Positions 24,921-34,049 are shown, counted from the stretch's first letter. The stretch: DNA of 64,000 nt from an uncultured Alphaproteobacteria bacterium (GCA_944390275.1 CALXPL010000006.1:28734-92733), one strand, 5' to 3'. The notes: generated by a model from the sequence alone, not told the origin. A program made the numbers and translations.

Positions 24921-26474
24921 TTAGTGTTGTTTATCGGCCAAATATGAGGATATTTGAGCATTAGAAAGTTTTAATCCTCTAGTTTGAGCCCTTGAAATTT
25001 GGGGATTCTGTCGTATGTTATTTCCATTCCTCAGTGCTATAATTAAATCTTTTGCATCAGTTGATAGTTGTTTTTTTGCAGCTTTAATATGTTGTTTTAA
25101 ACGGTTATAGCGTGAGATAACCATTGCCCTACGTTGAGGATTTAAACGCCAATTCTGTCTTTGCGGTTGCTGCAATGATGATTGAGGCTTCAAGCTAGAA
25201 GTCATCTTGTAATATATATTTTTAACAGCTTTCTTAAATAATTGAGCAGGAAAATCAATTGCTTTTTTTACAAGATTAAAAGTCCTATTCGTTTTAGATA
25301 CTTTTTTCAAAGATGGCTTCGTAGATATCCGCGCATTAAGTCTTTGTGGATTTCCCTTCACAAAATTATTTTTCTGGGATGACAACATATGTTCTTGGCT
25401 TTTCTGTCGTGCAGAAGGTCCTGAAGACAAGGTTTTAGGTGTATTTTGATTTTTAGCAAATATATCATCTAGAGCACTAAAAACAAGATCTTGTCCCCGT
25501 AAACGTTGGTTGTTTTGATTATTTTGGTGATTTTGTTTTTGAAATTCCCGAAAAGTATCAAGAAGGTTTGTATAATTTTGAAATTGCCCAAGACTAATAG
25601 GATTCTGCGGATTTTTTGATATGTTTTTATCAACTGTTTCTTTGAAATGTTGGGCTAATTTGGCATTGATTTTGCTGAGTTGTTGATATAATTGATCACA
25701 TTGTTGCAAATCAACTTCTTTTGCAGTTACAATTCCATCAGCAATTAATTTTCCATCCAAATCATTAATACGCGAAGGTTTATCTCTACGAATATATGGA
25801 GCAGCAATTTTTTTCAATTCCTCTATTTCTTCAGGCGTTTGAGCGCGAGGACAATAAATAACAATGGAATCATTACGGTCATACCAGTTTGTTGGGCGAC
25901 AAGTCTTGTAATGCATGCCATGTTTTGTTGCAAAATCATCTAGCTTTTGAATAAACTCTTTATCAGGAATTGCATTAATCGCATAGCGATGGTCTATTTT
26001 TCCTTTGATAAAATTACGCGGAGCACGATAAATCCAACTACTAGTGGTTTCGTTAATAATATCAATAGAATTGCTGCTTTGTTGCAAATAATTCGCAAAA
26101 CGAGCTCCCTTTGCAGTAAATTGCCTGCTTCTACTATTATCAGTATACATTCCATATGCGGTACGATCATAGTTTGCAAGTTTTTTTGCTTCATAGAGGC
26201 ACTTTATTGCAGAATTTAACGCACCTAAATTGCCCATTGAGGAATAATCTGGTGGATTTTTTTGGAGTTGCATAATTTTAGTTTTAATATATTCATCATC
26301 AATAATGCGCCCCTTTCGAGTTGTGTTAGCCAAAAGGCGAGCACTTCCTAGTAAAGAAATTTTATCAAAGAAAATTTCTTCATCAGAACGATTAAAATTA
26401 GCACTTTTTGCCATTGCATCATAAGCGGAAAAAAGTTTTTTTTCTTCAGAAGACAAATTCTCAAATAAATTCAT
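24921..26474 (-). CDS. large hydrophilic Q/N-rich protein, paralogue of 29736..31346 (effector-like)
   Basis: 517 aa. The central block WIYRAPRNFIKGKIDHRYAINAIPDKEFIQKLDDFATKHGMHYKTC...DSIVIYCP...PYIRRD...NPISLGQF aligns with the 536-aa protein. The C-terminal third is low-complexity and Q/N/K-rich. Confidence 0.55.
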   Translation of the reverse strand: MNLFENLSSEEKKLFSAYDAMAKSANFNRSDEEIFFDKISLLGSARLLANTTRKGRIIDDEYIKTKIMQLQKNPPDYSSMGNLGALNSAIKCLYEAKKLANYDRTAYGMYTDNSRSRQFTAKGARFANYLQQSSNSIDIINETTSSWIYRAPRNFIKGKIDHRYAINAIPDKEFIQKLDDFATKHGMHYKTCRPTNWYDRNDSIVIYCPRAQTPEEIEELKKIAAPYIRRDKPSRINDLDGKLIADGIVTAKEVDLQQCDQLYQQLSKINAKLAQHFKETVDKNISKNPQNPISLGQFQNYTNLLDTFREFQKQNHQNNQNNQRLRGQDLVFSALDDIFAKNQNTPKTLSSGPSARQKSQEHMLSSQKNNFVKGNPQRLNARISTKPSLKKVSKTNRTFNLVKKAIDFPAQLFKKAVKNIYYKMTSSLKPQSSLQQPQRQNWRLNPQRRAMVISRYNRLKQHIKAAKKQLSTDAKDLIIALRNGNNIRQNPQISRAQTRGLKLSNAQISSYLADKQH

Positions 26475-26598
26475 AATTAATCTCTCTCGCCTACATAATT
26501 AAGCAATATAAATTATTTATAACATATTAATTAAAAAAAATCAACAAAAATCTATGAATTGTACAATCTTTGTATTCGCATTACGCAAAGGTAAACAA

Positions 26599-27483
26599 TT
26601 ACAACAAAACCATATTAATGCCGATGATAATGGCAGTAAATGAGATGAGCTTTTTGATAACTTCTTGTCTGGTTAAGTTTTCTTTGAAGCTGTTTCCGAA
26701 GATTTTATAAAGCACAAACCCTAACAAAAGCGTAAAAATACTCTGTGATGAGCCTATTGATTTTACGGCTAATACAGGTAAATGAGCTAAAGCTATTGTT
26801 CCAGCTAAAGTTCCGCCTTGGTTTAGAATTTCATTAGATAAAAAGAGTTTTATTCTCTTTTTATACTGTGGAAAGGTGTTTACAATATCCGTTCTATATT
26901 GAGGAAGAAGTAACAGAGATAAACAAATTGATGTTGCAAAAAGTGAACCCCAAAATAAAACGGTTACAAAGTCAACGCTCTGCAGAGAATATTTGGACAA
27001 TACCGAAGACAGGGATAATAAAACGGAGACGACCAACATCAAGAAGAACGCGATATTAATTTTTAATTTCTTGATATCAAAATTAAGCAAAAAAGTGGAA
27101 AGTAAAATAATTCCGAAACCACAATATTGAGTTAAGCTCAGTTTTTCATTTACAATAAAATAAGCCAATACCGGAACGGCAATTTTACCTAAAGAGAATA
27201 ATGCTACAACAATCGAAGTATCAATATTACGGAGCGCATGATAATAAGGAATTTGATAACAAACTTCGATTAATGAGATGATAAATAATATTGCTAAAAT
27301 TTCTAATGGCGGAATAATCGGGGTTCCGAAGAAAAATAAAAACGGAATGATAATGATGTTGCTGATTGTGGCATAAAATACAAGTGAAGGTACTTTCTTA
27401 AAAATATTATTAGAAAAATGCGCATCTACAATACAAGACAAAGCGTGTAAAAGTGGCGTTAAAAAGGCAATCAGAACGTACAT
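26599..27483 (-). CDS. DMT-superfamily (EamA-like) membrane transporter
   Basis: 294 aa with about 10 TM helices in two repeated halves. Confidence 0.5.
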   Translation of the reverse strand: MYVLIAFLTPLLHALSCIVDAHFSNNIFKKVPSLVFYATISNIIIIPFLFFFGTPIIPPLEILAILFIISLIEVCYQIPYYHALRNIDTSIVVALFSLGKIAVPVLAYFIVNEKLSLTQYCGFGIILLSTFLLNFDIKKLKINIAFFLMLVVSVLLSLSSVLSKYSLQSVDFVTVLFWGSLFATSICLSLLLLPQYRTDIVNTFPQYKKRIKLFLSNEILNQGGTLAGTIALAHLPVLAVKSIGSSQSIFTLLLGFVLYKIFGNSFKENLTRQEVIKKLISFTAIIIGINMVLL

Positions 27484-32441: not shown

Positions 32442-34022
32442 ATGTCTAAAAAGAATAAATATCAAAATATTGCAGATGAAGAATGTAAACAAGCCGTTAT
32501 ATTTGCTCGAGTTTCATCGGAAGAACAAAAGAAAGGAGCTTCCATTGATGCACAACTTAAAACGGTTATTGATTATTGTAACAATCACAAATTTAAGATT
32601 CTAGATAAATTCTCTATTGTTGAAAGTTCAACGCGAGGTGGGCGTTTAAAATTTTATGAAATGCTTGAGTTTGTAAAATCTCAAAAACACAAAACCGCTA
32701 TTGTTGTAAATTGTGTCGATAGATTGCAACGAGGATATAAGGAATGTGTTGAATTAGACGATTTGCGTAAACAAGGCAGAATAGAAATACATTTTTATAA
32801 AGAAGGTTTCTATTTGCATAGAGATAGTAATTCATCTGATATTTTACGTTGGGATATGGGAATTTTATCCGCTAAGATGTATGTAGGTGCTTTAAGAGAC
32901 AATGTTTTACGCAGTCAAGAATATAAAAGAGAAGCAGGACAATGGCAATCTTGCGCTCCGGTCGGTTATTTAAATATATCCAAAACCAAAACGACTCCGG
33001 CAGACATTGTGATTGATGAAGAGAGAGCCCCTAAGGTTAAAAGACTTTTCGAAGAATATGCCAAAGGCGGACGAACCTTGCAAGATATTACCAATCTAGC
33101 CAGAACCTTAGGATTATCTTCAAAAATGTGTCGTGTAAATAAAACAATTAGTCGAGCTCAAGTTCAAAACATACTGAAAAATACTTTTTACATTGGATAT
33201 TTTACGCAAAAAGGCAAAGTTTACAAACATCCTTATCCTTTATTTATAGATAAAGAATTGTTTCAAATTGTCCAAGATACTATGGAAGGAAGAAAACGAG
33301 CACCAAGTAAATTATATTATGGTGATAAACAATATATTTTTACAGGTTTAGTCAGATGTGGTTGTTGTGGTAGTTTAATGACTTGTGAAACTAAAGTAAA
33401 AGACGATAAACATTCTTACAATTATTTAAAATGTAACAAATTACGTTCCAAATGTTCACAAAAACCAATCAATGAAGCAAAAATCTTACAACAGCTTGAA
33501 AAAGAATTGTCATTACCTATTAACATTAGTGACACTATGTTAAAAAATATTAAGTCAGAAGTAAAAAAGCAACTCAAAGCCGAAAATATCAATACAGCCA
33601 ATCTCAAACGAGACATTACCATTAAATTAAATGAGCTTGATGAAGAAGCAAAAAACTTATTCCGTGGCTATATGAGAGGTAAATGCGATGAAAAAATGTA
33701 TAATGAATTAAAAACTGAAATTGAAATGGAAAAAGAAAAACTACAAAAAGATATGGATAGATACCTTGAGATTGATGCTGAAACTGATGAAATACTAGCA
33801 AATATCGCGGAAATAGCTGCAAATGTAGGAAAATTCTTAAAAAGTCCGATTATTTCTGAAAAAAGAGACATTTTGAAATTAATATTATCGGACTGCAAAA
33901 CTGAAGGAAAAAATATAGCGTTTTCAATAGTTAAGCCATTCGATGAACTACTAAAAACGCCTGAAACTGATAAATGGTGCCGCCAGCAAGAATCGGACTT
34001 GCGACCCCGTCATTACCAATGA
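32442..34022 (+). CDS. large serine recombinase (resolvase-domain integrase)
   Basis: AVIFARVSSEEQ carries the catalytic Ser. A resolvase N-domain is followed by a recombinase domain, a zinc ribbon (CGCCGS...CNKLRSKCS) and a long coiled coil. ATG 32442 with GAGGAG upstream is preferred over the track's TTG at 32427. The 3' 48 nt overlap the tRNA-Thr gene. Confidence 0.8.
   Translation: MSKKNKYQNIADEECKQAVIFARVSSEEQKKGASIDAQLKTVIDYCNNHKFKILDKFSIVESSTRGGRLKFYEMLEFVKSQKHKTAIVVNCVDRLQRGYKECVELDDLRKQGRIEIHFYKEGFYLHRDSNSSDILRWDMGILSAKMYVGALRDNVLRSQEYKREAGQWQSCAPVGYLNISKTKTTPADIVIDEERAPKVKRLFEEYAKGGRTLQDITNLARTLGLSSKMCRVNKTISRAQVQNILKNTFYIGYFTQKGKVYKHPYPLFIDKELFQIVQDTMEGRKRAPSKLYYGDKQYIFTGLVRCGCCGSLMTCETKVKDDKHSYNYLKCNKLRSKCSQKPINEAKILQQLEKELSLPINISDTMLKNIKSEVKKQLKAENINTANLKRDITIKLNELDEEAKNLFRGYMRGKCDEKMYNELKTEIEMEKEKLQKDMDRYLEIDAETDEILANIAEIAANVGKFLKSPIISEKRDILKLILSDCKTEGKNIAFSIVKPFDELLKTPETDKWCRQQESDLRPRHYQ
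33843..33894. repeat. 52-bp imperfect palindrome AGTCCGATTAT...TTATCGGACT (second copy; inside the 3' end of the recombinase CDS)
   Basis: Same length and outer arms as 29142..29193. It lies 81 nt from the tRNA 3' end. Confidence 0.45.
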
Positions 34023-34049
34023 CGTGCTCTACCACTGAGCTATGGCGGC
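33975..34049 (-). tRNA. tRNA-Thr (anticodon GGU), CCA encoded
   Basis: The reverse complement folds as a cloverleaf: GCCGCCA-TA-GCTC-AGTGGTA-GAGC-A-CGTCA-TTGGTAA-TGACG-GGGTC-GCAAG-TCCGATT-CTTGC-TGGCGGC-ACCA. It has a 7-bp acceptor stem, and D, anticodon and T stems of 4, 5 and 5 bp. Anticodon loop is U33-GGU-A37. The T-loop is TCCGATT, which is non-canonical at position 55. Confidence 0.85.

Follow-up and report, generated by a model that had tools for sequence, protein, structure and literature searches.

A 64,000 nucleotide window of DNA from an uncultured Alphaproteobacteria bacterium (GCA_944390275.1, CALXPL010000006.1:28734-92733) was analysed, in which a large serine recombinase (LSR) gene runs into the 3' end of a tRNA-Thr(GGT) gene. 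The evidence supports 24921-34049 as a real, strain-variable accessory island beside this tRNA gene, grown through repeated insertions. With a probability of about 0.75, its part from approximately 27.6 to 34.0 kb consists of small integrative elements, arrayed in tandem and partly decayed, that the LSR inserted at the tRNA 3' end. The attachment (att) site of the recombinase lies within its own open reading frame (ORF).

The window is a low-GC alphaproteobacterial metagenome contig (ENA ERZ28614493, scaffold_184; 34.9% GC overall). Against the named alphaproteobacterial genomes matched in a contig scan with MurA, its own MurA reaches no more than 61% identity. Synteny was drawn from related contigs reached by exact-protein look-ups; L-numbers are contigs and P-numbers are database proteins. 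The same-species strains are L087, L090, L093, L097 and L099. A sister species, with L121 among others, has a MurA 90% identical to that of the window, and in a third species (L125/L127) the identity is 86%.

The recombinase and its attachment site

The LSR contains the domains Resolvase (PF00239, E = 3e-14, residues 23-172 of a 531-aa ORF with a TTG start), Recombinase (PF07508, E = 2e-12) and Zn_ribbon_recom (PF13408, E = 6e-9), and the catalytic-domain motif FARVSSEEQ is present. It matches the PHROG 95 integrase with E = 2e-63, and is far under the cut-offs of the NCBIfam families CcrB (85 vs 900 bits) and XisF (68 vs 375 bits). The exact protein is present on 19 contigs. Relatives of the LSR were not found among the IMG/VR viral contigs, which gives no hint of a phage vehicle.

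The LSR ORF ends antisense inside the tRNA gene. A 9 bp core, AAATGGTGC, makes up the codons K-W-C, and past it the codons (33981-34022) read antisense to the tRNA. The LSR coding sequence meets the tRNA 3' end at the identical nucleotide in every LSR-bearing relative. Across the window and the related contigs there are four types of site with only this short core in common, as in serine integrases. The attB type (tRNA terminator / AAATGGTGC / tRNA body) is found in strains without an LSR (L118), and the attP-like type (LSR 3' end / AAATGGTGC / D1, where D1 is the tail-coding arm of the element) in L131 and L132. The attL type (tRNA terminator / AAATGGTGC / D1) is found in L115 at position 5586. 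The attR type (LSR 3' end / AAATGGTGC / tRNA) is present in the window at 33972 and in L115, L121 and L125. The complete conventional case is L115, which has a 4-kb element between attL and attR.

The LSR homologues in the databases differ only past K-W-C, where three kinds of tail are found. The first is RQQESDLRPRHYQ followed by a stop, or similar, and is antisense to tRNA-Thr. The second is very short, because the tRNA allele brings in an early stop. The third is a conserved native tail of approximately 30 aa (AILCSYRTENYEDFKELxRKxE, for example KWC-AILCSYRTENYDEFKELTRKMELFEDSVEEDL and a stop), which is the intact form of D1. At its start, the D1 repeat itself has a degenerate version of the tRNA end and, in frame with K-W-C, it encodes this conserved peptide. 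Among the 120 LSR homologues listed, approximately 50 have tRNA-antisense or very short tails and approximately 17 have the D1-type tail. Because the core is inside the LSR ORF, integration replaces the conserved tail by tRNA-antisense codons, and both states of the gene are present in the data.

Other tails, such as TWPESNRHVLADNRF or PWPDLNQHSLARNRF in the LSR homologues P0189, P0197 and P0221, resemble the antisense of other tRNA 3' ends. Such tails antisense to other tRNAs occur in distant members of the LSR clade (approximately 44-49% identical) and in one LSR fragment, and suggest that the clade also uses other tRNA targets.

In the mechanism proposed here, the LSR ORF of the un-integrated form would run through the core into its native tail. 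Recombination with the chromosomal site, consisting of the tRNA terminator, AAATGGTGC and the tRNA body, would put the LSR flush against the tRNA. After integration the LSR tail would be read from the tRNA antisense strand, and D1 would end up at the far left of the element. Going leftward from the tRNA, the youngest element would then be followed by a relic of an LSR 3' end, a cassette with a 96-aa gene and a cassette with a 207-aa gene. Catalysis by the LSR and this order of insertion are what we infer from the sequences.

The right arms beside the core may also have a feature of serine integrase sites. The motif ATCGGACT occurs 16 nt past the core in intact D1 (P') arms and 11 nt past it in the tRNA, which is a 5-bp shift. 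The exact crossover dinucleotide is probably the GC of the core and, on this assumption, ATCGGACT occupies positions 12-19 in the tRNA and 17-24 in D1. In serine integrases, the zinc-ribbon-domain (ZD) motif is at 11-19 in attB and 16-24 in attP, 5 bp nearer the centre in attB (PMC3783163). The placement of ATCGGACT in the right arms would essentially fit this rule, making it a candidate ZD motif.

A 52-bp dyad in the 3' coding region of the LSR is kept in all LSR alleles. This dyad and a second one at 29142-29193 were considered as attR and attL with crossovers at their centres. This was rejected because both halves of the 29.1-kb dyad have their match in the site of LSR-less strains and the indels have their edges at the tRNA end instead of the dyad centres. 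A palindrome at 33918-33960 was not called as a terminator by the terminator scan, and therefore no claim is made that the LSR 3' end terminates the tRNA.

Upstream of the LSR, ATCGGACT is present 27 nt ahead of the start codon in four alleles (the window, L125, L121 and L132). The 61-aa gene is directly upstream of the LSR in all five of the other elements compared. Its homologues adjoin the LSR in L117, L121, L131 and L132 (53-95% identity), and the gene is likewise placed in the 95%-identical module of L127. From this conserved position, the 61-aa protein is a candidate directionality factor or regulator. The segment with the 89-aa and 42-aa genes is 94% identical in L125 and 73% identical in L121, where it is inverted.

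Probable remnants of earlier insertions

The original prediction described a repeat of approximately 75 nt ahead of both plus-strand genes of this region, and suggested that the repeats at 27.6 and 28.6 kb could be decayed att remnants. The repeats (27623-27703 and 28586-28666) are 81 nt with 70% identity, and they prove to be copies of the element-side arm (P') of the recombinase att site. In a profile search with nhmmer, the D1 copies of the 207-aa and 96-aa cassettes were recovered with E = 1e-17 and E = 6e-17, respectively. The motif that the repeats were said to have in common with the region upstream of the recombinase, TTATCGGACT, occurs exactly three times in the 64 kb, always within the island. 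Allowing one mismatch, there are 11 matches in the 64 kb vs 3.7 +/- 2.0 expected.

The D1 peptide of the 96-aa cassette resembles the native LSR tail. The flanks just left of the two D1 copies, tcttaaaatt/GGTGTGCG and cttaaatataaaaa/ACGGTGCG, are similar to the sequence that closes the B arm, atcttaa/AAATGGTGC, and this is how decayed attL junctions would look. The D1 repeats are decayed tail-coding arms that mark the left ends of two cassettes without an LSR, which are probably older. The 207-aa protein is not homologous to an equally long protein that adjoins D1 in the sister species, although it had been considered as such. Next to the cassettes, the segment 29139-29227 is 67% identical to 33840-33894 and 82% identical to the block next to the tRNA in strains without an LSR, and may be a relic of an earlier LSR 3' end.

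The youngest element is shortened at its left end. In L131 the order is LSR, D1, a 196-aa gene and then a segment (4947-5004) matching window 29249-29306. The LSR segment of L131 is 94% identical to the window at the nucleotide level and its protein, P0137, is 96% identical. This order indicates that the window element has lost D1 and the adjacent gene. Because the left arm is deleted and there is no attL, the youngest element is probably fixed in place and no longer able to excise.

Within the shortened end, a 106-nt block of non-coding spacer (29288-29393) is 80% identical, in inverted orientation, to L121 5871-5976 inside a sister-species LSR element. The 5' region of the LSR (32356-32440) opens with GCAAGAATCTGA, one mismatch from the tRNA T-arm sequence GCAAGAATCGGA. 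This region and 29227-29313 have CTGAAAAT and AATAACACGACA in common, pointing perhaps to one more decayed junction or to a partial duplication.

Several points weigh against a tandem array built by the LSR. Serine integrases normally recombine only attP with attB, and on this rule the entry of a second element is hard to account for once the tRNA-proximal junction has become attR. Mirrored copies of ATCGGACT were not seen in the left arms, and the half-site reading draws on the right arms only. The sole 'empty' same-species contig, L090, begins at a distance of just 600 nt from the tRNA and has rearrangements of its own, and nothing links 24.9-27.5 kb to the LSR. In L132, a full-length LSR with its intact native tail is followed by cargo and then, 2 kb away in cis, by an attB-like tRNA junction.

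This last arrangement is compatible with a tandem array but also with a resident recombinase. The LSR would then be an integron-like platform at the tRNA, with D1-headed cassettes being captured or excised between the K-W-C site and the tRNA end and with recombination of attP and attB in cis deleting the cargo. Many cassettes have no LSR, relics in L116, L118 and L123 hold LSR coding sequence contiguous with D1, and the 89-/42-aa segment is inverted in L121, all of which would suit a resident platform. Such a platform is nonetheless unlikely, since the LSR is missing from many strains and its alleles are exchanged across species. In addition, L115 shows a conventional element from attL to attR, and the D1 cassettes of the window are distal to the LSR element rather than between the LSR and the tRNA.

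Strain variation at the tRNA-Thr locus

That 24921-34049 is a composite accessory island had been proposed from the sequence alone, and both its composition and its synteny agree with this. The GC content of the region is 31.3%, vs 35.8 +/- 1.2% (minimum 33.0%) for same-size windows outside it. The tetranucleotide distance is 0.188 vs 0.098 +/- 0.013 (maximum 0.125) outside, approximately 7 standard deviations above. There is indel polymorphism between same-species strains, and the genes of the region have no synteny in two related species. Thus neither a conserved gene order without indels, nor a flank-like composition, nor a chromosome-wide housekeeping family of paralogues was found.

The accessory nature of the region stood, but its left edge at 24921 did not. 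This edge is arbitrary, as genes at 22.0-24.9 kb are also absent in relatives. The YeaD-like, NUDIX, GNAT and 176-aa genes found there are missing at the locus in relatives and are invariant within the species. Marks of the att site can be traced only rightwards from 27.6 kb.

Among the same-species strains, L093 and L097 have a 1.6-kb insert with a 494-aa gene between 31977 and 31985. In L087, a 4.6-kb restriction-modification insert is present between 31983 and 31984 and the LSR is broken. The LSR segment of L093 and L097 is only approximately 91% identical to that of the window, vs 97-99.6% for the flanks. In L090, the homology to the window runs to 29227 and resumes at 33973, the exact tRNA 3' end, with 29228-33972 missing. 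Breaks in several independent assemblies are found in or at the tRNA and near 29.3 kb in L083 (window 29334-34042), L091 (start 34014) and L082 (end 34227), as expected if the populations are mixed for the presence of the youngest element.

In the sister species, the backbone of SerRS-TrpRS-META and tRNA-Thr-49aa-MurA is kept and the interval between META and the tRNA depends upon the strain. It holds an LSR with a small gene in one case and, in another, GmrSD and an LSR with a type IIG restriction-modification system. Further fillings, one per strain type, are Fic/Bro-N/AAA_21/GIY-YIG/LSR fragment, ISL3, a NERD protein and a Y1 transposase. None of the window genes between META (end 21993) and the tRNA was found at the locus in the sister or third species by tblastn, and the tRNA-Thr(GGT) is at the same place in all relatives examined. 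The different cargo at this gap in relatives consists mostly of defence genes, and the LSR genes are full-length, shortened or relics. LSR fragments are in-frame with Fic, N6/N4 methyltransferase, DpnII, NgoFVII, NERD or Dcm methylase sequences in P0175, P0179, P0186, P0196, P0198 and P0206, which suggests that deletions uniting cargo and recombinase genes recur. In the third species (L125/L127 3737-7323), the SerRS-TrpRS-META block (window 19.7-22.0 kb) is inverted and placed between tRNA-Thr and MurA, so that a chromosomal inversion has one of its ends at the LSR/tRNA locus.

Some of this variation is not tied to att sites. The genes at 24.9-27.5 kb (EamA and the 517-aa gene) are accessory and strain-variable, and they seem to turn over by flank-mediated gene replacement. 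Where an MFS transporter gene takes the place of the 517-aa gene, and likewise at the slot at 31977-31985, the ends are sharp and without att-like repeats, and the entire META-tRNA interval differs between the species. It could be argued that the locus is no more than a gene-flux hot spot, maintained by homologous recombination in the conserved flanks and by illegitimate deletions, with the recombinase and repeats as bystanders. This is very improbable, because it leaves unexplained why four junction types share one 9-bp core, why the exact LSR-tRNA abutment recurs in at least four species and why the D1 tail is conserved at the protein level.

The transfer of the LSR between species can be seen as well. 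The segment 31422-34118, which includes the 89-, 42- and 61-aa genes, the LSR, tRNA-Thr and approximately 70 nt beyond, is 95.2% identical by blastn to L125 of the third species. The flanking backbone of that species is only 67-78% identical to the window, and this difference indicates that a 2.7-kb LSR/tRNA block moved recently between species. Identity of the LSR module to its counterpart in the closer sister species is just 77-78%. Immediately outside the left edge of the 2.7-kb block (31422), a near-perfect 34-nt palindrome (31375-31408, 88%) lies between where the 536-aa gene starts and where the 89-aa gene stops.

No second copy of the tRNA 3' end was found in the whole 64-kb window (23-mer, up to 3 mismatches), as had been reported before. 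A long direct repeat of the tRNA is not to be expected here, because this integrase is a serine and not a tyrosine recombinase and its common core is 9 bp long. In relatives, 19-63-nt direct copies of the tRNA 3' end surround mini-inserts of 110-190 nt (L090, L116, L123 and L126), which implies that a second integration system uses this tRNA. These could point to a classical tyrosine-integrase or prophage island at the tRNA that lost its integrase, with the serine recombinase as a later arrival. There is very little to recommend such an origin, since the window has no tyrosine integrase, phage genes or tRNA fragment and its marks are of the LSR type. GC-richer mini-inserts at the tRNA (L090 375-600; L116/L119 approximately 9397-9588; L123 approximately 9470-9588; L126 2464-2723) have a terminator hairpin at their end, and no Rfam match was found for them.

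Cargo and comparison with known systems

The features of the region are listed in Table 1. The paralogues, the DMT transporter, the repeat-headed plus-strand genes, the 730-nt stretch and the recombinase are all present as first described. The two large proteins are indeed Q/N-rich, with Q+N at 16-17% overall and 20-22% in their C-terminal halves, against 7-10% for MurA and the recombinase. They are distant paralogues with 26% identity over approximately 320 N-terminal residues (E = 5e-22), and no further paralogue was found in the 64 kb. The 494-aa cargo protein of other strains was considered as a third paralogue and rejected.

The 536-aa family is rare, with 10 close homologues among 5.8 billion proteins, and is therefore not a chromosome-wide housekeeping family. 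In relatives it is found at unrelated loci without a recombinase. No match to the 517-aa and 536-aa proteins was found at the sequence level in Pfam or the PDB. A confident structure model (predicted local distance difference test, pLDDT, 85.8) gives the N-terminal domain a HopA1/phosphothreonine-lyase fold, and both paralogues are predicted to share it. The residues H146, K174, R185 and R214 are invariant and might correspond to the catalytic Lys/His set of SpvC. A profile search identified 236 cluster representatives with the same core domain, some of which are fused to metallopeptidase-like domains. Compared with HopA1, the OspF-SpvC lyases and lanthipeptide lyase domains, the 517-aa and 536-aa proteins have no kinase or cyclase partner and have an extra beta-rich C-terminal domain.

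The 207-, 96-, 89-, 42-, 61-, 52- and 494-aa proteins have no match in PHROGs, NCBIfam or Pfam. Nothing was found in Rfam for D1, the 730-nt spacer or the GC-rich segments of relatives. One of the latter, an apparently structured non-coding segment of approximately 200 nt upstream of a 63/65-aa gene (L121 approximately 7400-7640, L132 approximately 1540-1780), is conserved between species and reaches the gathering score of no Rfam family. The position of the lysine-rich ORF between the tRNA and MurA is filled (49-52 aa) in four out of four species, with no family match.

Table 1. Genes, putative elements and sequence motifs in the analysed window.
Feature	Position	Strand	Remarks
NUDIX gene	23479-24009		
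Aldose-1-epimerase (YeaD-like) gene	24032-24847		Ends at 24847
Replaceable segment with 517-aa gene	24860-26591		MFS transporter gene instead in L093 and L099
517-aa protein gene	24921-26474	-	
EamA/DMT transporter gene	26599-27483	-	Pfam E = 2.5e-16; without att-site marks; not syntenic in relatives (tblastn)
Putative older cassette with 207-aa gene	27614-28521	+	D1 arm 27614-27707, gene, terminator-like palindrome 28484-28521; D1 encodes SNYRINEYEDFKT and a stop
207-aa gene	27853-28476	+	Unknown function
Putative older cassette with 96-aa gene	28579-29047	+	D1 arm 28579-28670, gene, terminator hairpin approximately 29018-29047; D1 encodes SSNYRANSYDDFKKIRRKIKKT and a stop
96-aa gene	28715-29005	+	Unknown function
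Non-coding stretch, 730 nt	29006-29735		
Possible LSR 3'-end relic	29139-29227	+	Dyad AGTCCGAT...ATCGGACT and eroded tRNA terminator
Putative youngest element	29228-33974		LSR, 61-/42-/89-aa module, 536-aa cargo
Shortened left end of youngest element	29228-29735		Without D1 arm; breakpoint vs L090 at 29227/29228
536-aa cargo gene	29736-31346	-	Predicted N-terminal HopA1/phosphothreonine-lyase fold; C-terminal domain beta-rich
89-aa and 42-aa genes	31453-31722 and 31734-31862	-	Conserved second half of LSR module
Cargo slot	31977-31985		Between 42-aa gene and -35 of 61-aa/LSR promoter; methyltransferases here in L131
61-aa gene	32032-32217	+	Terminator 32226-32251 behind
ATCGGACT	32415-32422	+	27 nt upstream of LSR start codon; candidate operator
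LSR gene	32442-34022	+	526 aa
52-bp dyad AGTCCGAT-N36-ATCGGACT	33843-33894	+	In LSR 3' coding region (codons KSPII...LSDC)
attR core AAATGGTGC, 9 bp	33972-33980	+	Only exact copy in window
tRNA-Thr(GGT)	33975-34049	-	ARAGORN; Rfam 70 bits; proposed integration target, 3' end as B' arm
ATCGGACT in tRNA T-arm	33992-33999	+	11 nt past core; candidate ZD motif of B' half-site
Lysine-rich 52-aa ORF	34199-34357		Between tRNA and MurA

Locally, this is the organism's main hot spot for acquiring defence systems and HopA1-like putative effectors. The closest known counterpart in overall layout is provided by the tycheposons of Prochlorococcus, which are additive tandem islands at tRNA genes, with a large serine recombinase in 27 of 937 elements (bioRxiv 10.1101/2020.12.28.424599). 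As in these, small cargo elements are stacked in tandem at a tRNA gene, tRNA-Thr(GGT) being among the tycheposon targets, and two D1 arms, one LSR relic and one LSR element are found in series in the window and vary between strains. Newer elements would push older ones inward, with fragmented integrases and att remnants left behind. Variation peaks beside the tRNA, and the cargo is adaptive or defensive. Unlike in the tycheposons, all the events that can be traced here are serine-recombinase events on a core of 9 bp, and the att site is inside the recombinase ORF. There are also no replication genes in the window and no partial tRNAs at the borders of its elements, and the host is a low-GC alphaproteobacterium.

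Islands of the Islander type have a tyrosine integrase and a displaced tRNA fragment, neither of which was found in the 64 kb. Island finders based on tRNA fragments will miss islands such as the one described here. Integrons have an IntI tyrosine recombinase, attI and attC cassettes; here the recombinase is of the serine type and the D1 arms are not attC. A more speculative extension, for which the odds are no better than slim to modest, is that the LSR clade is the serine-recombinase equivalent of tRNA islands built by tyrosine integrases, and that tail exchange on integration would alter the activity or directionality of the enzyme, as a built-in switch. The D1-headed cassettes without an LSR would then be mobilised in trans, and the tRNA-Thr locus would be an integron-like platform for defence and effector genes.

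To our knowledge, an integrase gene that spans attP has so far been known only for tyrosine recombinases (Mx8 and SSV). In Mx8 IntP/IntX and in SSV, attP is within the tyrosine-integrase gene and integration gives the gene a new 3' end (Mx8) or splits it (SSV) (PMC4383910, PMC6070905). The LSR is like these in having attP inside the integrase coding sequence, and unlike them in being a serine enzyme whose replacement tail comes from the tRNA antisense strand.

Serine integrases are important as genome-engineering tools, and the system described here provides a compact natural set of attB, attP, attL and attR sites, together with two natural isoforms of the enzyme, for studies of directionality. 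The LSR shares with A118/LI, phiC31, Bxb1 and SPbeta SprA, and with CcrB/XisF, the Resolvase/Recombinase/Zn-ribbon architecture, a short core and an adjacent small partner gene. Canonical serine integrases target protein-coding genes or intergenic sites, and reference works do not count tRNA genes among their known targets (PMC7192596, PMC4383910). In contrast, the target here is a tRNA gene, and a whole clade of serine integrases targets tRNA genes, with tRNA-Thr(GGT) being used in at least four related species. What is new is therefore a tRNA-targeting serine integrase with an intragenic att site and a tail that is swapped upon integration.

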